Assembly: GCA_964521665.1 (NCBI GenBank)
Contig: CAZFSG010000002.1
Location: 15,825 to 57,083 of the forward strand
Direction of reading: 5' to 3'
From: an uncultured Elusimicrobia bacterium
Lineage (GTDB): Bacteria > Elusimicrobiota > Endomicrobiia > DTEH01
Length of the DNA: 41,259 nt
Positions 423 through 18,628 of this stretch are shown here, in pieces. Position 1 is the first letter of the stretch; each line of letters begins with the position of its first letter. The position numbers were made by a program, and so were the translations under genes. The notes under the pieces are model-generated. The model had not been told where the DNA came from. It did no database searches and worked only from the letters and a program-made list of their open reading frames with translations.

Positions 423-782
423 ATGTACATAAAATTTTTAAAATCAAAACTACAAGGATTAACTGTAACTGCAAAAAATCTTTATTATACTGGAAGCATA
501 AAACTTGACAGAAATTTCTTAGAGTTAGCAAATATACAACCTTATGAAATTGTCTTAGTTATAAACATTAGTAATGGAGAACGATTTGAAACATATGTTA
601 TCCCTGCAAAAAAAGGGTCAAAAACTGTTGCTTTACAAGGCGGTGCTGCAAGATTAGGTGAAGTAGGAGACCAACTTATAATTATGTCGTTTTGGTATAA
701 AGAAGTAAAAGATGATAAGAGTAAAAAACCTGTTAAAATTATATTTAATAAAAACAACACAATTAAAAAAATTATAAAATAA
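423..782 (+). CDS. panD: Aspartate 1-decarboxylase (pyruvoyl-dependent proenzyme)
   Basis: K9, Y22-x-G24/S25 self-cleavage site (YTGS), NGERFETY (R54/T57/Y58), GGAAR and GDQLII; 119 aa. Confidence 0.92.
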   Translation: MYIKFLKSKLQGLTVTAKNLYYTGSIKLDRNFLELANIQPYEIVLVINISNGERFETYVIPAKKGSKTVALQGGAARLGEVGDQLIIMSFWYKEVKDDKSKKPVKIIFNKNNTIKKIIK

Positions 783-803: not shown

Positions 804-2393
804 ATGTTTGACTTACCAAAATATTTAAGCACTGTAGCATTGGAAACATATCTACAATGTCCATATAAGTTCAAAATATTATATATTGACCGTATAGGTA
901 CCAGGTATAAAAAACCTCAACCATACTATTCATTTGGAAATACTATACACAAAGTTCTTGCTGAATTTTTTAAAATCACAAATCTTCAAGAACGTACAAT
1001 TGATAAGTTACTTTTGTTGTTGGACACATACTGGATTTCTGAAGGATATTCTACAAAAGAACAAGAAGCTGAGTATAAACATAATGCTGTTTATTTATTA
1101 AAAAATTTTTTTGAAAATAATGATGTTACAATCACACCACTATTTAGTGAAAAGTTTTTTAGAATAAGTATTGAAGATTTTTTTCTTACAGGAAAAATAA
1201 ATCGTATAGATGAAGTTCCTGGTGGTGTTGAAATAATTGACTATAAGACAGGTGGATATATTCCAAAAAGTGAAGAACTTGAAAAAGACCTGCAGATGAA
1301 TATTTATGCATTATGTTGTTGGGAGAAATATAAATTGTTTCCAAAAATTGTCTCACAAATTTTTTTACAACATAACCAAAAAATTTCTGTTTCTAAAACA
1401 CCTCAGTGTATACAAGAAACAAAACAAAATATAATAGATATCGTCAGACGAATATATTCTGACAGCGAATTCCTACCTCAACAGAATAATTTATGTCCAT
1501 ATTGTGATATTCTACCGATATGTCCTTTGATGGGTATGGGTGTTAAAATTGTAAAAGAAAAAGAATTAGAACAAGATTTTAAAATTATTAATAAACAACT
1601 ACAACGTGCTATTAACGATTTACATCTTTTGAACAAAATTAGTTTAGATATAGCAGAAATAATAGATACACAAAAAATTATATCATCAATACCCGATTTT
1701 ATTTCAGGATCTGGGATAGTTAAAAAAGTTGCAATATATTTATATAACGAAGAAAATAAATGTTTTACATTAGCTGAAAACTTACAAAATATTTCTATTA
1801 CTCCAAAGATAGATTTTGAAACGATACACCATATAGTAAAATTTAATAACGAGTCTTTACCACAAGCAGAAATTTTATCACCAAACAATATCTATATCTT
1901 TAAAGAATTTTCTTCTACTGAAATCTTATTTTTACCTATGGTCTCAAGAGGTAATTTTTTAGGATTTATTTTATGTAGTGAAAAGAAGGATTACTCCAAC
2001 TTTACAAATTATGATATTTCTTTATTACAAAGTTTAGTTAACCACATTGCTGTTGCGTTACATAATGCACAACTTTATGAGTTAGCTATTACTGACGGTC
2101 TTACAAAATTGTTTATTCATAGGTTTTTTATTTCAAGATTAGAATACGAGATTTTGCGTGTACAAAGGTATAACACAACATTTTCTTTACTTTTGATAGA
2201 TATAGATCATTTCAAACAAATAAACGATACTTATGGACATCTTGTTGGTGACGAAGTATTAAGACAACTTGCAAAAATTTTGTTATCATCAGTAAGAATA
2301 ACAGATGTTGTATGTAGATATGGAGGGGAAGAATTTGCTATATTATTGATAGAATGTGGTCATGAATGGGCACAAAAATTGTTTACAGAATAA
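804..2393 (+). CDS. Fusion of RecB/Cas4/AddB-like PD-(D/E)xK Fe-S nuclease domain, coiled coil, GAF and GGDEF diguanylate cyclase; C-terminus frameshifted as assembled (reconstructed end 2588, 594 aa)
   Basis: Nuclease domain: LSTVALETYLQCPYKF, FGNTIHKVL, GKINRID, IIDYKTG, LQMNIY, CPYCDILPIC. GAF end: FTNYDISLLQSLVNHIAVALHNAQLY. GGDEF: TDGLTKL, DIDHFKQINDTYGHLVGD, RITD I-site, RYGGEEF. Confidence 0.88.
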   Translation: MFDLPKYLSTVALETYLQCPYKFKILYIDRIGTRYKKPQPYYSFGNTIHKVLAEFFKITNLQERTIDKLLLLLDTYWISEGYSTKEQEAEYKHNAVYLLKNFFENNDVTITPLFSEKFFRISIEDFFLTGKINRIDEVPGGVEIIDYKTGGYIPKSEELEKDLQMNIYALCCWEKYKLFPKIVSQIFLQHNQKISVSKTPQCIQETKQNIIDIVRRIYSDSEFLPQQNNLCPYCDILPICPLMGMGVKIVKEKELEQDFKIINKQLQRAINDLHLLNKISLDIAEIIDTQKIISSIPDFISGSGIVKKVAIYLYNEENKCFTLAENLQNISITPKIDFETIHHIVKFNNESLPQAEILSPNNIYIFKEFSSTEILFLPMVSRGNFLGFILCSEKKDYSNFTNYDISLLQSLVNHIAVALHNAQLYELAITDGLTKLFIHRFFISRLEYEILRVQRYNTTFSLLLIDIDHFKQINDTYGHLVGDEVLRQLAKILLSSVRITDVVCRYGGEEFAILLIECGHEWAQKLFTE

Positions 2394-2588
2394 AAGAAAA
2401 TGTTGAAAAAGCAGTGTTTAAGATTGATAAATTAGAATTACATCTTACAGTAAGTATCGGAGTGGAAACATATTATGATGGAGCCACAGTTAATGAAATT
2501 ATTGAACATACAGATAAAGCGTTGTATCAAGCAAAAAAAATTAGGACGAAATAGGGTTGTTATTTATGATAAAATTTTTGATGAATAA
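2374..2588 (+). pseudogene. Out-of-frame C-terminal part of the GGDEF domain of the 804 gene
   Basis: Adding one A to the A5 run (2374-2378) gives WAQKIVYRIKENVEK...LTVSIGV...DKALYQAK. Removing one A from the A8 run (2533-2540) gives the canonical KLGRNRVVIYDKIFDE*, stop 2586-2588. Confidence 0.8.
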
Positions 2589-3297
2589 CAAAATATTGAA
2601 ATTTTTTTATGCGGTGATGCTGTTACCTTTTTGCTACTCAATCTTTGTTACTTTGATTTATGTTATAAAAAATACTCAATTAAGTAATAAACTTGTCCAA
2701 TTTTTTCTTTTAGGAGCGGGTGTATATTTTGTTATTCATGTGTTATTATATAAACCAATAAAATTATATGTTATAGGTCACGAACTTATGCATATGATAA
2801 GCACCTACATTTGTGGAGGGAAAGTTAAAAAAGTAAAAATAGGTTCTTCATATGGTAGCGTGAATGTTAACAAAATTAATACTTTTATTGCCTTATCACC
2901 ATATTTTGTTCCTTTATATACTATTATCATAATATTTTTATGGTTTGTTTTAAAATACATTGGTAAAGTTAATTTATCAACTGAAATTCTATCATTCTTT
3001 GTAGGATTTACTATAATGTTCCATATTATGCTTACAATATATGCGATATATATTGGTCAGCAAGATTTTAAAATTTCTGGGTGGTTGTTTTCAATAGTTG
3101 TAATTTTTATAATTAACTGTCTGATATTAATCCTTTTATTTATGTTAATGTTTTCACCTAAGATAACTATTTCTCAAATAAAAGACTTTTTTATATTAAA
3201 TACAAAAAATACATATATTTTATGCTATAAAAAGCTAACAAATTTGTCCATTTATATTAAAACATTTTTTACTAAAAATGTATCCAAAAGTTTTTAA
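2581..3297 (+). CDS. Integral membrane HExxH zinc metalloprotease, M50/M50B-like
   Basis: Multiple hydrophobic helices, GHELMHMISTYICGGKV and IALSPYF. Start 2581 preferred because ATGAATAA overlaps the reconstructed upstream stop (ORF track start 2557). Confidence 0.65.
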   Translation: MNNKILKFFYAVMLLPFCYSIFVTLIYVIKNTQLSNKLVQFFLLGAGVYFVIHVLLYKPIKLYVIGHELMHMISTYICGGKVKKVKIGSSYGSVNVNKINTFIALSPYFVPLYTIIIIFLWFVLKYIGKVNLSTEILSFFVGFTIMFHIMLTIYAIYIGQQDFKISGWLFSIVVIFIINCLILILLFMLMFSPKITISQIKDFFILNTKNTYILCYKKLTNLSIYIKTFFTKNVSKSF

Positions 3298-3871
3298 TAT
3301 TGAAGTTCGCCAAGAAATAAAAAGAAAAAGTTTTCATTTGCTAACAATATTTTATCCTTTATTATATAACATCATTCCTTATAATACAGCAGTAATTATT
3401 TCTGCGTCTTTAATGATAATAGATTTAATATTGGAAACAATCCGGTTGTTATACCCATCTGTTAACAGATTAATATTAAAGATTTTCGAAGGCACATATA
3501 GAGAAAAAGAAAAAGAAAATGTTTCAACTTTGATATGGACATTATCAGGTGCGTTTCTTACGATATTTTTATTTCCAGATAATAAAAATATTGTAACATT
3601 AAGTTTATTATACCTTGCATTAGGAGATAGTGTAGCAGCATTAGTTGGAGTAAAGTTTGGCAAAATAAAGTTAGGTTCTAAAGGAAAAAGTTTAGAAGGA
3701 TCATTAGCATTTTTTGTGGTTGCGTTTCTTTGTAGTTTATTTTTTGTAAATATAGAATATGCATTTATATCGGCATTTTTAGGTGCAGCAATAGAATTTT
3801 TACCATTACCTGTAGATGATAATTTTATTTTACCAATTTTCATAGCAGGATTGTTAACTATTTTGTTATAA
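3278..3871 (+). CDS. CTP-dependent polyprenol/dolichol/phytol/diacylglycerol kinase family membrane protein
   Basis: RKSFHLL, GDSVAALVGVKFG, KSLEGS and DDNFILP motifs of the SEC59/DGK1/VTE5 family. Confidence 0.85.
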   Translation: MYPKVFNIEVRQEIKRKSFHLLTIFYPLLYNIIPYNTAVIISASLMIIDLILETIRLLYPSVNRLILKIFEGTYREKEKENVSTLIWTLSGAFLTIFLFPDNKNIVTLSLLYLALGDSVAALVGVKFGKIKLGSKGKSLEGSLAFFVVAFLCSLFFVNIEYAFISAFLGAAIEFLPLPVDDNFILPIFIAGLLTILL

Positions 3872-3873
3872 AT

Positions 3874-4599
3874 ATGAAATGTGTAGAAGTAAAAAATCTC
3901 TATAAAAGTTTTGATGGTAAAGATGTGTTAAAAAACATAAGTTTTGATGTTTTAAAAGGCGAAATTTTTATTTTATTAGGTCCTAATGGCGCAGGAAAAA
4001 CAACTACTGTTAAAATTTTATCAGGTGTAATAGAAGCTGATAAAGGCGAAGTTTATATTTTTAACAAGAAGATGTCTGTAGCTGCTATAGAACTAAAACA
4101 AATAATAGGTTATCTTCCTGACGAACCTTATATTTATAATAAACTCACTGGCAAAGAGTTTATTGAGTTTATAATGGGGATTTACAAAAAAAGAGTTGAC
4201 ATAAAAAAATACGAATTTTTTCTTGAACAGTTTGATTTAAAAGATGTTATAACCAAACCAATAGAAGTGTATTCAAAAGGAATGAAACAAAAATTGTTGT
4301 TATTAACAATTTTTCTTCGTGAACCAGAAGTATATATTTTAGATGAACCAATGATAGGACTTGATCCACAAAGTATAAGTTTTTTTAAACAGTTTATAAA
4401 AGAATTATCATATGAAGGGAAAACAATAATTTTGTGTACCCATATTTTAGAAGTTGCCCAACAATTAGCAAATAAAATTGCTATAATATACAACGGCGAA
4501 ATTTTACTCTGTGATACACAAACAGAACTTAAAAATAAATTTAAAACAAATAATTTAGAAGAAATTTATCTTTCTGTAATAAACAAAATATCAAAATGA
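3874..4599 (+). CDS. ABC transporter ATP-binding protein (ABC-2/multidrug type)
   Basis: Walker A GPNGAGKTT, signature YSKGMKQK, Walker B YILDEP, H-loop CTH. Confidence 0.92.
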   Translation: MKCVEVKNLYKSFDGKDVLKNISFDVLKGEIFILLGPNGAGKTTTVKILSGVIEADKGEVYIFNKKMSVAAIELKQIIGYLPDEPYIYNKLTGKEFIEFIMGIYKKRVDIKKYEFFLEQFDLKDVITKPIEVYSKGMKQKLLLLTIFLREPEVYILDEPMIGLDPQSISFFKQFIKELSYEGKTIILCTHILEVAQQLANKIAIIYNGEILLCDTQTELKNKFKTNNLEEIYLSVINKISK

Positions 4600-5147
4600 T
4601 TGAAAAATCAAACATACTTTTACATATATGTTGTGGTATATGCGCATTAGAATCTATAAAAAGATTAAAACAACAAAATTATGAAGTTGTTGGACATTTT
4701 TTTAACCCTAATATTTACCCTGAATCTGAATATTTAAAAAGAAAACAAGTTGTGGAAAAAGTTGCTGAAATTTATAAAATTAGAGTTATATATGATGAAT
4801 ATGAACCCCAAGTATGGGAAAATATATGTGGTTCATATAAAGATGAACCCGAAGGTGGGAAAAGATGCCTTCTTTGTTATCAACTGAGACTTAAAAAAAC
4901 ATTTGAAGTTGCTTTGAAAGAAAACTTTGAATTTTTTACCACCACCCTTACTATAAGTCCACATAAAAAATCTAATGTTATTTTTGAAATTGGAGAACAA
5001 ATTGGAGGAAAGAAGTTTCTAAAGATTGATTTTAAGAAACAAGACGGGTTCAAAAATACTATAAACCTTGCAAAACAACTTGGTTTATATCGACAGAACT
5101 ATTGCGGATGTAAGTTTTCGTTAAAAAATAGTATTTCTAAGAAATAG
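4596..5147 (+). CDS. queH: Epoxyqueuosine reductase QueH (DUF208)
   Basis: LLHICCGIC, FFNPNIYP..EY.KR, RCLLCYQLRL, TTTL.ISPHK, YRQNYCGC. Confidence 0.92.
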   Translation: MIEKSNILLHICCGICALESIKRLKQQNYEVVGHFFNPNIYPESEYLKRKQVVEKVAEIYKIRVIYDEYEPQVWENICGSYKDEPEGGKRCLLCYQLRLKKTFEVALKENFEFFTTTLTISPHKKSNVIFEIGEQIGGKKFLKIDFKKQDGFKNTINLAKQLGLYRQNYCGCKFSLKNSISKK

Positions 5148-14494: not shown

Positions 14495-14887
14495 TTATTT
14501 TGATTCCCTTTTTACAACAGTTTTTATTCCCCCACGAATATTAAACTCAAGTTCTACATACAACCATTTTGGTTTCAGTAATTTATACAAATCATCAAAA
14601 ATTTTATTCACAGCAGATTCGTGTACAATATGAACATTGCGATAACTTTGAATATAATACTTTAATGATTTTAGTTCAACACAGGTTTCTTTTGGAATAT
14701 ATTTTATTTTAAGTAAAGCAAAATCAGGAAGGTTATTCCAAGGACATAAACAAGTAAATTCTTGTGTTTCAATTTCTATTATTATATCTTTTCCTTTATA
14801 TTCATACTCCATTGGTATCAATAACTCAGGAGAAACTTTATCAAATTTAACAGGTAAATTTTTTATTTTATTATACAATTTTTTCAT
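14495..14887 (-). CDS. queF: NADPH-dependent 7-cyano-7-deazaguanine (preQ0) reductase, type I
   Basis: EFTCLCP..LPDFA, QueF motif [17 protein letters not shown]. Confidence 0.93.
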
Positions 14888-16081
14888 TTATTTAAAAACT
14901 TCAACTGCAATAAATTTTAAATATTCAGTTTCGAACTTCATAGGAAGATATATAGGATGATCTTTAGCTTGAGTTCCATAATATATTATAAAACCTTTTT
15001 GTTTATTTTTCAACATGGAAGAAAGAATTATTTTGTATGAATCTTCTAATGATATATGTCTACTACAAACAGAAAAAGATAAAATTCCGTTGTTGTTTAA
15101 CATATTCAAAATTTTAGACAAAATAAACTCATACTTCTTTTTTGCAGGATTAACATCTTTTTCAGATTTAGCATATGACGGTGGATCAAAAATTACTAAA
15201 TCAAAAATTTTTTTATTATATTTTATAAAATCTTCAATTTTTGTATTAACAAATTCAACTTCAACTTTGTTTAATTTAGCATTTTCTTTTGCAAGTTCTA
15301 TTGCATAAGATGATGAATCCACACCTACAACATTTTTAGCTCCTGATAAACTACAAAGTATTCCAAATGAACCGGTATAACAACACAAATCTAACACGGT
15401 TTTGTCTTTAGCAATAGTGGAAATATATTTTCTGTTTTCCAGTTGGTCATAATAGAAACCTGTTTTTTGTCCGTTTAAAACATCAACAATAAATTTTGCA
15501 TTTAGGTGTTGTATCGTAGTAATAAGTTTTTCACTTATTTTATTTTTTGCATAAACTATTTCTTTATTTCTTGGAGCAAATTCAAGATCTCGTTGGTAGA
15601 CATCATTATTTATAACTATAAATCGTGGATTAAACGTATCTATTAAACATTCAATAATTTCTTTTTTAAACAATTCCATTGCATATGAAAAGAACTGTAT
15701 TACAAAAATATCGTTATATCTGTCTATTACTATACCAGGTAAAAAATCACTTTCGCCATATACAATTCTACAAAATTTTATATTTATACCATATTTTTTT
15801 CTTCTTTCTACCGCATCTTTTATTCTTTTACAAAAAAATTCTTTATTAACTTTTTCTTCTTTTTTCTGTGAAAGAACTCGAACAGAAATCAATGAATGTG
15901 GGTTATAGACACCTTTACATAAAAAGTTGTTATGACGATCATAGACTTCAACATAAGAAATTTGTTTTGATAACCCAGTATGTTCTATTTCATTAGAAAA
16001 AATCCATAGAAATCCGTTTTTAATCCTATTTTTAAACTGTTTTGAAACTTTAATTTTTACAGGTTCAAGAATGTTATTCAT
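14888..16081 (-). CDS. rlmI: RlmI-family (23S m5C1962-type) PUA-domain SAM-dependent rRNA methyltransferase
   Basis: WIFSNEI, GESDFLPG..IDRY, GQKTGFYYDQ, LDLCCYTGSF, DPPSYAK, SVCS, DHP, YLK. Confidence 0.8.
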   Translation of the reverse strand: MNNILEPVKIKVSKQFKNRIKNGFLWIFSNEIEHTGLSKQISYVEVYDRHNNFLCKGVYNPHSLISVRVLSQKKEEKVNKEFFCKRIKDAVERRKKYGINIKFCRIVYGESDFLPGIVIDRYNDIFVIQFFSYAMELFKKEIIECLIDTFNPRFIVINNDVYQRDLEFAPRNKEIVYAKNKISEKLITTIQHLNAKFIVDVLNGQKTGFYYDQLENRKYISTIAKDKTVLDLCCYTGSFGILCSLSGAKNVVGVDSSSYAIELAKENAKLNKVEVEFVNTKIEDFIKYNKKIFDLVIFDPPSYAKSEKDVNPAKKKYEFILSKILNMLNNNGILSFSVCSRHISLEDSYKIILSSMLKNKQKGFIIYYGTQAKDHPIYLPMKFETEYLKFIAVEVFK

Positions 16082-16895
16082 ACCACAGCAAAAATTTTGT
16101 TTTTAATAAATTAATTTTCTTATTTAAAAATTTTTCTGCATTACCTTCATTGATTGCTATTTCAATATAACCAAACGAATTAACATATGCAACTAACTTA
16201 TGTTTTTGGACATCTGCATAACATTTTTTTAACTTAATCTCAAACATTGATTTATTTTTATACCAAATTGTAATCTTGTATTTGCCAAGTTGAGTTTTAT
16301 TTAATAATTCTTCGTTTAAAGAAGTTACAATATTTCCAAAACTATCACTGAAAAGATATTTTCCAACCACAACTTTTTTGTTGCCTACTTTTTTTATTTC
16401 ATTAATAATATTATGTAATTTCACAATTTTAGTTTTATCAAATTTTTCACAAATTTTATTAATAGATACACCTTTAGACAAATATGCACTTACTGGCGAA
16501 AAAATATCTCTTCCGTGAAAAGTATTACTTACTTTTGACAAAAACAATTTTTTGTTTGTTACTTTATACACAGAATAATTTCTCTCCTTGTTTATCACTT
16601 CTGTTATCAAACCATTATTAGGAACAATAAATATATAAGAACTTGTTTTAACTAAAATTATCTCTCTTTTACTTCCTACTGTAGGGTCAACTACACAGAC
16701 AAAAATACTTTTTTTAGGGAAATATTTATAAGATTTTGCAAGAACAATAGAGGCTTGTAAAACATTCTGTGGCCTAATATTATGACAAAGATCTATTATT
16801 TCTACGTCGGGATTTATAGTTTTTATAACACCTTTCATTTGTCCAACATAAAAATCATTATTAAAATCTGTCAATAAAACAATAAATTTTTTCAT
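16074..16895 (-). CDS. DUF62 SAM hydroxide adenosyltransferase (SAM hydrolase; fluorinase/chlorinase superfamily)
   Basis: LLTDF, IIDLCHNI, VVDPTVGSKR, PNNGL, SNTFHGRDIFSP, DSFGN, IEIAINEGNA. Confidence 0.9.
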   Translation of the reverse strand: MKKFIVLLTDFNNDFYVGQMKGVIKTINPDVEIIDLCHNIRPQNVLQASIVLAKSYKYFPKKSIFVCVVDPTVGSKREIILVKTSSYIFIVPNNGLITEVINKERNYSVYKVTNKKLFLSKVSNTFHGRDIFSPVSAYLSKGVSINKICEKFDKTKIVKLHNIINEIKKVGNKKVVVGKYLFSDSFGNIVTSLNEELLNKTQLGKYKITIWYKNKSMFEIKLKKCYADVQKHKLVAYVNSFGYIEIAINEGNAEKFLNKKINLLKTKFLLWYE

Positions 16896-17599
16896 CGTAT
16901 TTTATATATTATTCTATGTAATTGTGGAATTATATATATGATTGGTACATATTTTTTTGTTAACTTAAAAATTTTTGTTATATTAAAAAACAGAGTTTTA
17001 CTCTTTTTTTTTAATGAAGAAGTTTCTGGTTGTAAGACTAAACTTTTAGGCTTTGTTTTGACCAAAAACTTTTGTAATCTTTTTAACGTATAATCATTAT
17101 ATAGTTTTCTTCCACATATTGTTATTTTTATAAAAAATTCTTTATTGTTTTTTTTACATAAATTTACAATTTTTTGTGTGTTTGTTATTACGTTTTTTCT
17201 GTTAATATCATCTTCTGGAATTTTTAAATTTATTGCACACACATCTATAAAGTTTATAACATCATGAAACTGTCTAACTAAAGAAGCATTTGTTTCAAGA
17301 TAAATTTTAAAATTTTTATATTTAACAATTTCTTTTAAAAAATCTGGAAGTTGTTTTTGAAGAAGAGGTTCACCACCTGTTAAACTTATAAATTCAGGCT
17401 TATATTTTTTTAAATATTTTAAAATTTTATTAGCGAGATGTTGTGGTTCTATATTATTTTGTTTAGTAACACTTTTTGCATATTTTGTATCACAATAATA
17501 GCAATTAAGATTACATCCTGCAAACCTAATAAACAATGTTGGTGAGCCGATATAAGGACCTTCTCCTTGATAAGAAAAAAAAATTTCTTTGACGTTCAT
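16892..17599 (-). CDS. queE: 7-carboxy-7-deazaguanine synthase (radical SAM)
   Basis: EIFFSYQGEG, FIRFAGCNLNCYYCDT, TGGEPLLQ, LETN, PQLH. Confidence 0.93.
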   Translation of the reverse strand: MNVKEIFFSYQGEGPYIGSPTLFIRFAGCNLNCYYCDTKYAKSVTKQNNIEPQHLANKILKYLKKYKPEFISLTGGEPLLQKQLPDFLKEIVKYKNFKIYLETNASLVRQFHDVINFIDVCAINLKIPEDDINRKNVITNTQKIVNLCKKNNKEFFIKITICGRKLYNDYTLKRLQKFLVKTKPKSLVLQPETSSLKKKSKTLFFNITKIFKLTKKYVPIIYIIPQLHRIIYKIR

Positions 17600-18264
17600 C
17601 TTTTAGCTAAAGGATCTACAATACCAGCTTTTTTAAAACCTAATTCACGAAATTCACAAGAATCACAAATCCCACAAGGTTTCTTCCCACCTTTATAACA
17701 ACTCCATGTGTTTTCTAAAGGAACTTTTAATTTCACTGCTAACTTAACAATTTCTTCTTTTGATAAATTTATTAGCGGTGCAACAATTTTAATTTTTTTT
17801 CCACTAACACCTTTTTTTGTACCAACATTTATCATTTTTTGGAAAGCATCAACAAAAACTTTTCTGCAGTCAGGATATCCAGAAAAATCAATTTGGTTTG
17901 CTCCATAAAAAATAAAATCTGCATTTATTACTTCAGCAAGCGATGTTGCAAAAGATAAAAATATGATATTTCTTGCAGGAACATAAGTTGATGGTATTAT
18001 ATTTTTTTGTTTTTTTATAGGCAGTTTTAATTTTTTGTCAAGTAAAGAACTTCCTTTCCATGGCAAAGAAAATTTTACAATAAAATATTTTAACCCCAAA
18101 CTTTTAGCAATTTTTTTTGCGCAATTGATTTCTTTTTTATGTCTTTGTCCATAATCAAATATAAGACATACTGGATTATAACCTTTGTTTAGTACGTAAT
18201 AAAGAGTAGTTGTTGAATCTAACCCTCCTGAAAGTAAAACAATACATTTTTTATTCTTCTTCAT
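17596..18264 (-). CDS. queC: 7-cyano-7-deazaguanine synthase
   Basis: SGGLDST, YGQRH, TYVPARN, SGYPDCR, TWSCY...CGICDSC. Start 18264 preferred (ORF track 18297). Confidence 0.96.
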   Translation of the reverse strand: MKKNKKCIVLLSGGLDSTTTLYYVLNKGYNPVCLIFDYGQRHKKEINCAKKIAKSLGLKYFIVKFSLPWKGSSLLDKKLKLPIKKQKNIIPSTYVPARNIIFLSFATSLAEVINADFIFYGANQIDFSGYPDCRKVFVDAFQKMINVGTKKGVSGKKIKIVAPLINLSKEEIVKLAVKLKVPLENTWSCYKGGKKPCGICDSCEFRELGFKKAGIVDPLAKR

Positions 18265-18628
18265 AACTTGCATATTGTATTGGTGTTTCCCACACAATAA
18301 CTTTTATTTTTTCTATATTTTTATTCAAAATTTTTTCTTTTAATTTTTTGTATATATATTTTGCAATATTTTCAGCAGTAGGTTGCTCAGTTTTAAAATA
18401 AGGTAAATCGTTCAAAAATTTATGATCTAAAGAATTTAAAATTTTGTTCAAAATTTTTTTCAGTTTAACAAAATCTATTACCATTTGTTGTTTGTTCAAT
18501 CTTGTAGTTGAAACAATAACTCCTACTTTCCAATTATGCCCATGAAATTTTTCACATTTGCCTTTATACAACTTTAGTTGATGTGCAGCAGAAAAATAAC
18601 TTTCTACATATACTTCAAATTTTTCCAT
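18251..18628 (-). CDS. queD: 6-carboxy-5,6,7,8-tetrahydropterin synthase
   Basis: FSAAH, CEKFHGHNW, LDHKFLN, PTAENIA, WET. Confidence 0.94.
   Translation of the reverse strand: MEKFEVYVESYFSAAHQLKLYKGKCEKFHGHNWKVGVIVSTTRLNKQQMVIDFVKLKKILNKILNSLDHKFLNDLPYFKTEQPTAENIAKYIYKKLKEKILNKNIEKIKVIVWETPIQYASYEEE

Follow-up and report, generated by a model that had tools for sequence, protein, structure and literature searches.

A probably decaying gene from a conserved family of nuclease-GAF-GGDEF fusions in an uncultured Elusimicrobia bacterium

Positions 804-2588 of the DNA analysed in this study (the window, a 41,259-nt stretch from an uncultured Elusimicrobia bacterium) raise the question of whether they encode a signalling protein with a disabled nuclease as its sensor, or the remains of a gene. 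An earlier note, made from the sequence alone, gave the locus as 804-2588 and read its product as a diguanylate cyclase with a probably nuclease-dead sensor domain. The parts named in that note were borne out by Pfam (PF12705, E = 3.5e-29) and by alignment: a RecB-family N-terminal domain (N-domain) with four Cys, D-Y-K and Q-x-x-x-Y, then GAF (marginally), GGEEF and RxxD, and also Asn at motif II (Asn133, codon AAT). One open frame to 2588, as that span implies, was not found: the first frame stops at 2391-2393, and the reading frame is shifted in two A runs. Asn133 turned out to be a polymorphic residue found only in the frameshifted gene of this species. The locus is very likely a pseudogene in progressive decay, that is, a gene being lost, and it belongs to a family whose intact members keep the nuclease active site.

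The first open frame is broken by a 1-nt deletion in an A run, where the window reads CAA AAA TTG (A5) and the same-genus relative G006 reads GAA AAA ATT (A6). The final 7 residues of the resulting 529-aa frame, with L-F-T-E ahead of the stop, are unlike those of relatives, and the GGDEF sequence continues in another frame (2366-2554; profile positions 103-157, E = 1.2e-07). A second shift, a 1-nt insertion, lies inside the motif YxAKxxGRN, a C-terminal feature that intact relatives share with PleD/WspR-type cyclases; with seven A at this site the sequence would read Y-Q-A-K-K-L-G-R-N. Work on PleD assigned the Lys and Arg of this motif to catalysis. In the structural model of an intact homologue, P0002, the stop lies within helix 520-536, and the cyclase fold loses some 70 residues from its C-terminus, among them four strands and helix 563-579 beyond the truncated helix. 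A complete, continuous GGDEF catalytic domain was not found in the window copy. Because the stop removes part of the fold and the second shift splits YxAKxxGRN, a working cyclase would not be expected from this copy.

The first frameshift was present in every version of this species' gene that was examined. The 90%-identity cluster had four members (from NCBI, JGI, ENA, and Logan), all of 529 aa, three of which differ from the window sequence. Two Logan contigs from public runs, X1 (hot springs metagenome, covering 700-2700) and X2 (covering 821-2700), each differed from the window by five substitutions and one gap, the missing A at 2533; the substitutions common to both were 1200 A>G, 2431 A>G, 2562 A>G, and 2623 T>C. 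This single gap indicates that the X1/X2 haplotype carries the first frameshift and not the second. At 2562 the same contigs encode Val, as do relatives P0002-P0010, where the window has Ile. A third run, X3, covered 9 of 30 bins of the stretch, short of the diagnostic sites. A general assembly error is unlikely, because the 24 neighbouring open reading frames (ORFs) that were scanned showed no split-gene pattern, those matched in Pfam being covered essentially end to end, and the ORFs tile the window without gaps. Among 401 genomes sampled from the phylum, 14 carried the full-length fused gene, and it was uninterrupted in 13; stops were seen in the window copy only.

The idea of a nuclease-dead sensor depended on Asn133 being a feature of the family, and this was not the case. 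In an alignment of 17 fused sequences, motif II had Asp in 15 and Asn only in the window and in P0001, a relative with 98% identity; in a wider set from the fused family (n = 27), Asp133 was found in 26 sequences, the window being the exception. P0170, the Logan version, differs from the window protein by N133D alone, and position 1200 is G in both X1 and X2. Since Asp prevails in the family and Asp and Asn are both found in the species, Asn133 would be a private allele of a pseudogene; it is a polymorphism within one species, in an already frameshifted gene.

The rest of the active site is well conserved. C19, C231, C234, C240, D146-Y147-K148, and Q164 were invariant in all 17 aligned homologues and Y168 nearly so, and in the larger fused set D146 was kept in 25 of 27 sequences, Y168 in 26, and K148, Q164, and each of the four Cys in 27. 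The same residues are kept in a set of 8 fused and 29 stand-alone domains, with the four Cys in 37 of 37. As these residues are common to both kinds of protein, the fused domain appears to be constrained like a working nuclease. Two divergent members, P0047 and P0100, lack D146 and retain the Cys.

The A5 deletion is likely to have come first, since it is common to all versions, and D133N, the additional A, and the V-to-I change are confined to the window haplotype. We propose that an A6 run was first shortened to the present A5, ending the frame at 2393, and that D133N, the extra A of the A8 run, and the V-to-I change were acquired later, in the window haplotype only. Given this order of events, Asn133 would be the product of drift in a dead gene, not part of an engineered dead-nuclease sensor.

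Loss of the gene was also seen elsewhere in the genus, where 2 of 8 genomes carry it. In four genomes (G001, G002, G004, and G005), panD is followed by a spacer of 69-189 nt, the two membrane-protein genes found downstream of the window gene, and an ABC ATPase gene, with no cyclase gene between. This short distance between panD and the membrane genes indicates a clean deletion of the cyclase gene. The window genome is 1.36 Mb, compared with roughly 1.5-1.9 Mb for genomes of the genus estimated to be at least 88% complete. Decay of the locus is thus supported by the broken frame in all versions, by the deletions in sister genomes, and by the interruption of a second Cas4-like gene in the window genome (see below).

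The intact family appears to consist of proteins with an AdnA/ACE1/Cas4-type nuclease domain, predicted to hold a [4Fe-4S] cluster, followed by a long helix, a GAF domain, and a GGDEF domain with an I-site. In the window, the N-domain was matched by PDDEXK_1 (PF12705) over residues 8-241 (profile positions 2-247 of 247). The N-domain searched alone as a single sequence had no match in the PDB; a profile was needed, and that built from the 8 fused and 29 stand-alone domains matched AdnA end to end (6ppu_A, E = 6.6e-13), ACE1 (9iab, 3.6e-10), and Cas4 (4ic1, 3.6e-06), with further matches to AdnB, Exo5, and AddB. The AlphaFold (AF2) model of residues 1-260 had a predicted local distance difference test score (pLDDT) of 94, and Foldseek placed it closest to AdnA (7sjr_A, TMq 0.72) and ACE1 (0.61-0.63), with a probability of 1.00, followed by AddAB, Dna2, Cas4, and Exo5. 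By profile, DxK and QxxxY motifs, Cys, and predicted fold, the N-domain belongs to the RecB-type "iron-staple" PD-(D/E)XK nucleases (AddB/AdnA/Cas4/ACE1/Exo5), the motif II Asp being the one element missing from the window copy; its four Cys, one N-terminal and three C-terminal, are the predicted [4Fe-4S] ligands.

The remainder of the protein was best seen in the P0002 model (pLDDT 88), whose predicted template modelling score (pTM) of 0.44 means that the arrangement of the domains is not fixed. A stretch of low confidence (241-251) and a 34-residue helix (252-285) lead to a GAF-like domain (289-429) of helices and strands with a long helix at its end, and then to the GGDEF domain (439-594). 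The coiled coil proposed in the earlier note could be retained as far as this predicted helix, and nothing beyond it lends the proposal support. In P0013 and P0015 some 45 residues of low complexity separate the nuclease domain from the helix, which argues for an N-domain that is tethered to the rest of the protein rather than rigidly coupled to it. The GAF match in the window was marginal (22.9 bits, just over the threshold of 22.4; residues 361-419, profile positions 77-133 only), and stronger matches to GAF_2 were obtained in P0046 (E = 1.2e-19) and P0047 (E = 9.5e-17). The GGDEF domain was matched over residues 428-525 (Pfam, E = 1.1e-32) and by TIGR00254 (NCBIfam, E = 9.7e-36).

The same combination of domains recurs well beyond this species. 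Of 18 homologue matches, 16 carry both PF12705 and PF00990 (529-654 aa, 41-98% identity), two of them named Endomicrobia bacterium. When 1.84 billion cluster representatives were searched with the N-domain alone, 4617 matches had E <= 1e-3 and 81 had E <= 1e-30, and 38 of 150 listed representatives, chosen as long or multi-domain, were scanned for families. Twelve of the 38 combine PDDEXK_1 with GGDEF, one of which, at 435 aa, is too short to include a GAF domain. Others combine PDDEXK_1 with DUF7376 (P0048, P0137, P0154, and P0157, about 380-410 aa), and one is a UvrD_C-PDDEXK_1 protein. In two, P0044 (716 aa) and P0046 (704 aa), the nuclease domain and GAF are followed by about 300 residues without a Pfam match at E <= 1; the nuclease-GAF module may there be linked to a different output, or to one that has degenerated. 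Eight representatives are tandem arrays of 2-5 PDDEXK_1 domains. Five proteins have an odd architecture, with 3-5 tandem Fe-S nuclease domains and nothing else recognisable (P0019, P0020, P0021, P0026, and P0029, 769-1297 aa).

Within the phylum the gene is patchy. It was present in 3 of 9 genomes of family f1 besides the window genome, 3 of 3 in f3, 1 of 1 in f6, 5 of 11 in f19, and 1 of 1 in f23, and in none of those sampled from f4 (n = 89) or f20 (n = 118). Judged by its recurrence among homologues, representatives, and genomes, the fusion is conserved and not due to chance joining of separate genes. A quick tree built from 27 fused and 29 stand-alone N-domains was poorly resolved, and 27 of its 53 inner branches stayed open. 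The fused label needed 5 changes on it, against a shuffled mean of 18.9 and with none of 500 shuffles reaching so few; no fewer than 3 changes are required by the starred branches. Such a tree neither establishes a single origin of the fusion nor rules one out. Two short rows entered as stand-alone, P0022 and P0038, adjoin fused rows and may be fragments. When stand-alone relatives of the N-domain were examined at 78 loci (830 kb, about 6 kb on each side; own hidden Markov model, E <= 1e-5), none lay beside a GGDEF ORF, which indicates that there is no general operon link between the two domains where they are not fused. A full-text search, with most subscription journals outside its coverage, turned up no paper that describes GGDEF joined to a nuclease of the PD-(D/E)XK or Cas4 type, its one apparent match proving unrelated; the earlier note likewise named no characterised protein with this architecture.

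As to function, the nuclease site and Fe-S ligands are constrained as in stand-alone nucleases, for which reason the N-domain of intact members most likely binds single-stranded DNA (ssDNA) or DNA ends threaded through a channel, and probably cuts them. This binding or cutting would be coupled to the synthesis of cyclic di-GMP (c-di-GMP) by a GAF-GGDEF dimer. We infer, tentatively and in the knowledge that it may well prove wrong, a family in which binding and probable cutting of ssDNA or DNA ends modulates a dimeric cyclase, as a functional c-di-GMP analogue of DisA. Two observations weigh against this mechanism: the gene neighbourhood is one of housekeeping (panC/panD, L21, Obg), with no hint of DNA repair or defence, and the long flexible linker of some members fits signalling through a rigid helix poorly. 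A more far-reaching version is doubtful in our opinion. It would make the intact members DNA-end- or ssDNA-gated c-di-GMP synthases, a counterpart of DisA or cGAS, with an active nuclease that reads broken, incoming, or foreign DNA; D133N would be a variant that binds and does not cut, and the A5 lesion of the Asp133 haplotype would be partly decoded by -1 slippage.

It is possible, although we think it unlikely, that the N-domain of the intact family is no DNA sensor: its [4Fe-4S] cluster may inform the cyclase of oxygen, redox state, or iron, or its nuclease may be an output under the control of GAF and of c-di-GMP at the I-site. Conservation in both sets is strictest at the four Cys (27/27 and 37/37), which are kept even in P0047 and P0100, which have lost D146; P0044 and P0046 join the N-domain and GAF without a recognisable GGDEF, and the context is housekeeping rather than DNA repair. 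A pure redox sensor, however, would need none of the nuclease-site Asp, Lys, Gln, and Tyr that are kept in 25-27 of 27 sequences. The N-terminal domain of multidomain GGDEF proteins is usually an input module, which speaks against the nuclease as an output.

Several points also weigh against decay as the explanation of the window copy. The lengths of the A runs are known from assembled contigs, and some of the assemblies may share reads or a sample; the best-matching run may itself be the source sample. The X1/X2 allele has a stop-free downstream frame and is one base away from an intact gene; it could still yield some full-length product by slippage, and the 529-aa product, with its GAF domain and, in X1/X2, an intact N-domain, could have residual function. 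P0001 combines Asn133 with 7 other differences from the window, and the Asp133 version is otherwise identical to the window, a distribution that does not fit a simple one-step history or a simple tree. This pattern could be due to strain recombination, to a G/A change that occurred more than once, or to a chimeric contig.

We consider it improbable that the first shift is decoded by a -1 slip of tRNA-Lys on CAA-AAA-T, giving a truncated sensor-only protein and, in the Asp133/A7 haplotype at least, a portion of full-length cyclase, or that the 529-aa nuclease-GAF product has been kept for a new role. The slip would restore exactly the A-Q-K-I-V-Y conserved in relatives, the X1/X2 haplotype has no other lesion, and the frameshift is common to all versions seen. 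The heptamer, however, is not a canonical X-XXY-YYZ, no RNA structure was found after the A5 site (z = +1.13; 177 of 200 shuffled sequences fold equally well or better), and the shift is absent from all 13 other fused genes. The window haplotype has added a second shift in a catalytic motif and D133N, as expected without selection, and the sister genomes do without the gene. It is hardly credible that the gene is intact and functional, with both shifts being homopolymer errors of sequencing or assembly and Asn133 marking a purpose-built nuclease-dead DNA or redox sensor: the shifts do lie in A runs, cancel out (-1, then +1), as might a pair of homopolymer errors, and leave all remaining motifs intact, but A5 and the 529-aa product recur in four versions and sources and in two Logan contigs of the other haplotype, the 24 neighbouring ORFs are unbroken, motif II is polymorphic in the species with Asp in 26 of 27 family members, and the gene is deleted in sister genomes.

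Progressive decay of the window gene is therefore the reading adopted here, and the features of the locus and its immediate neighbours are listed in Table 1.

Table 1. Features of the broken gene and its neighbours, in window coordinates
Feature	Position	Strand	Remarks
First open frame of the broken gene	804..2393	+	529 aa: nuclease domain, linker helix, GAF, first ~60% of GGDEF
PD-(D/E)XK nuclease domain, AdnA/ACE1/Cas4-type	825..1526	+	Residues 8-241, Pfam PF12705
Four Cys codons	858-860, 1494-1496, 1503-1505, 1521-1523	+	C19, C231, C234, C240
Motif II codon AAT, Asn133 (GKI-N-RID)	1200..1202	+	Asp in relatives; GAT in X1 and X2 contigs
Motif III, D146-Y147-K148	1239-1247	+	Alignment
Q164-x-x-x-Y168	1293-1307	+	Alignment
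Linker, predicted long helix (residues 252-285)	1557..1658	+	Model of intact homologue P0002; preceded by low-confidence stretch 241-251
GAF domain (residues ~289-429)	1668..2090	+	Model of homologue P0002; Pfam GAF at residues 361-419
GGDEF, in-frame portion	2085..2378	+	Profile positions 1-98 of 161
RxxD I-site (R498-x-x-D501)	2295-2306	+	Five residues ahead of GGEEF
GGEEF active-site motif (G507-G-E-E-F511)	2322-2336	+	Sequence
Frameshift 1, A5 run, 1-nt deletion	2374..2378	+	A6 in same-genus relative G006
Premature stop TAA of the first frame	2391..2393	+	Sequence
Remaining GGDEF, in the frame of 2366 only	2379..2540	+	IVYRIKENVEK...ALYQAKK
Frameshift 2, A8 run, 1-nt insertion	2533..2540	+	Inside conserved Y-x-A-K-x-x-G-R-N; A7 in X1/X2 contigs
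Last 15 codons and stop, LGRNRVVIYDKIFDE	2541..2588	+	Original frame regained
panD (aspartate 1-decarboxylase), upstream neighbour	423..782	+	Neighbour ORF scan
Membrane-protein gene 1, HExxH motif, M50B-like	2557-3297	+	Homologue at locus L195 matches Peptidase_M50B (E 2.8e-08)
Membrane-protein gene 2, overlapping gene 1	3278-3871	+	ORF

Both membrane-protein genes lie downstream of the cyclase gene in all 7 class relatives that carry it, and a homologue of the first is found downstream of the cyclase gene in families f19 and f23 also. In several families of the phylum (loci L089-L095 and L190-L195) an M50B-like HExxH gene and the 3' end of the cyclase gene overlap. As both membrane genes persist where the cyclase gene is deleted, they do not depend on it. 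A further record, L008 (JBGFRZ010000019.1), is titled "Ignavibacteria bacterium"; its blast statistics are the same as those of L093 from G014, a genome placed in the class of the window genome, which is at odds with that title.

The neighbouring ORFs scanned include panD, an ABC ATPase, queH, aroD, ftsZ, ftsA, ddl, murB, murC, and queF/E/C/D. A queuosine cluster occupies 14495-18628 (queF, a queE-like radical SAM gene, queC, and queD/PTPS), with queH at 4596-5147, and all of these genes appear to be intact. Neighbour scans of the window and of relatives found no defence, CRISPR, or repair genes near the fused genes; in one family (f19) recA lies three genes away, which was taken as coincidence. 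Among the 24 scanned neighbouring ORFs there was no match to a Cas family, CRISPR arrays not having been searched for.

A second Cas4-like gene is located elsewhere in the window genome, at about 38.7-40.5 kb of contig G000:C1 (locus L004, 1237-2983, minus strand). It encodes a tandem double PD-(D/E)XK protein, which in G006 is one open frame of 640 aa (L189, 1382-3301); in the window genome an in-frame stop separates the two domains, and the frame changes near the N-terminus. It is flanked by two ORFs of the metallo-beta-lactamase fold, labelled ComEC-like by reading of their sequences.

If the intact members do link DNA ends or ssDNA to c-di-GMP, c-di-GMP signalling would gain a new input, one comparable with DisA in cyclic di-AMP (c-di-AMP) signalling. 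Diguanylate cyclases are known with many inputs, and none was found in the literature search that is described with a catalytically intact nuclease domain. The window corrects the idea of a dead nuclease, as the family retains the active site. It also indicates a gene that is dispensable in one hot-spring lineage, being intact in one genome of the genus, decaying in the window genome, and deleted in four, and membrane genes next to it that are independent of it.

Among known systems, AdnA of mycobacterial AdnAB (PDB 6PPU, 6PPR, and 7SJR) is the best match to the N-domain both by profile (positions 4-243) and by fold, with the 1+3 Cys pattern, D...DxK, and QxxxY found along the whole domain. 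The AdnA domain, however, is C-terminal in a helicase-nuclease subunit of about 1045 aa, whereas in the present family it is N-terminal, without a helicase, and fused to GAF-GGDEF; the window copy differs further in having Asn at motif II. ACE1 is described as an Fe4S4 ssDNA endonuclease in which ssDNA threads a narrow channel holding the D-DxK site, and as inactive when both Asp are changed (PMC12094033). It stands alone as a domain and is comparable to the N-domain in size, in D-DxK, and in Fe4S4, which in the N-domain is predicted; it differs in serving defence with a pAgo partner and having no signalling domains, and no Argonaute or defence gene is near the window gene. Cas4 (TIGR00372; PDB 4IC1 and 8D3L) and AddB (3U44) share the superfamily, the iron-staple Cys pattern, and the motifs, but the NCBIfam scores (22.4 bits against a cut-off of 65 for cas4, 19.5 against 486.5 for addB) make the N-domain a member of neither family. 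A CRISPR-associated Cas4 was rejected as its identity on this score, below the curated threshold, and by the lack of cas linkage among the 24 neighbouring ORFs.

GAF-GGDEF cyclases of the PleD/WspR type with an I-site have GGEEF and, five residues upstream, RxxD, as found here; unlike them, the window copy has no continuous catalytic domain, and the literature search found no characterised cyclase with an N-terminal nuclease module. DisA is regulated by branched DNA, and its architecture lets the state of DNA set a second-messenger level. It makes a different messenger, c-di-AMP, with a diadenylate cyclase (DAC) fold instead of GGDEF, and its DNA-binding domain is a non-catalytic helix-hairpin-helix (HhH) domain; no homology is claimed. 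DisA has been called a DNA-damage checkpoint sensor (e.g. PMC8645862), and its likeness to the intact family would be a functional analogy, that of a DNA-binding module and a cyclic-dinucleotide synthase joined in one polypeptide.

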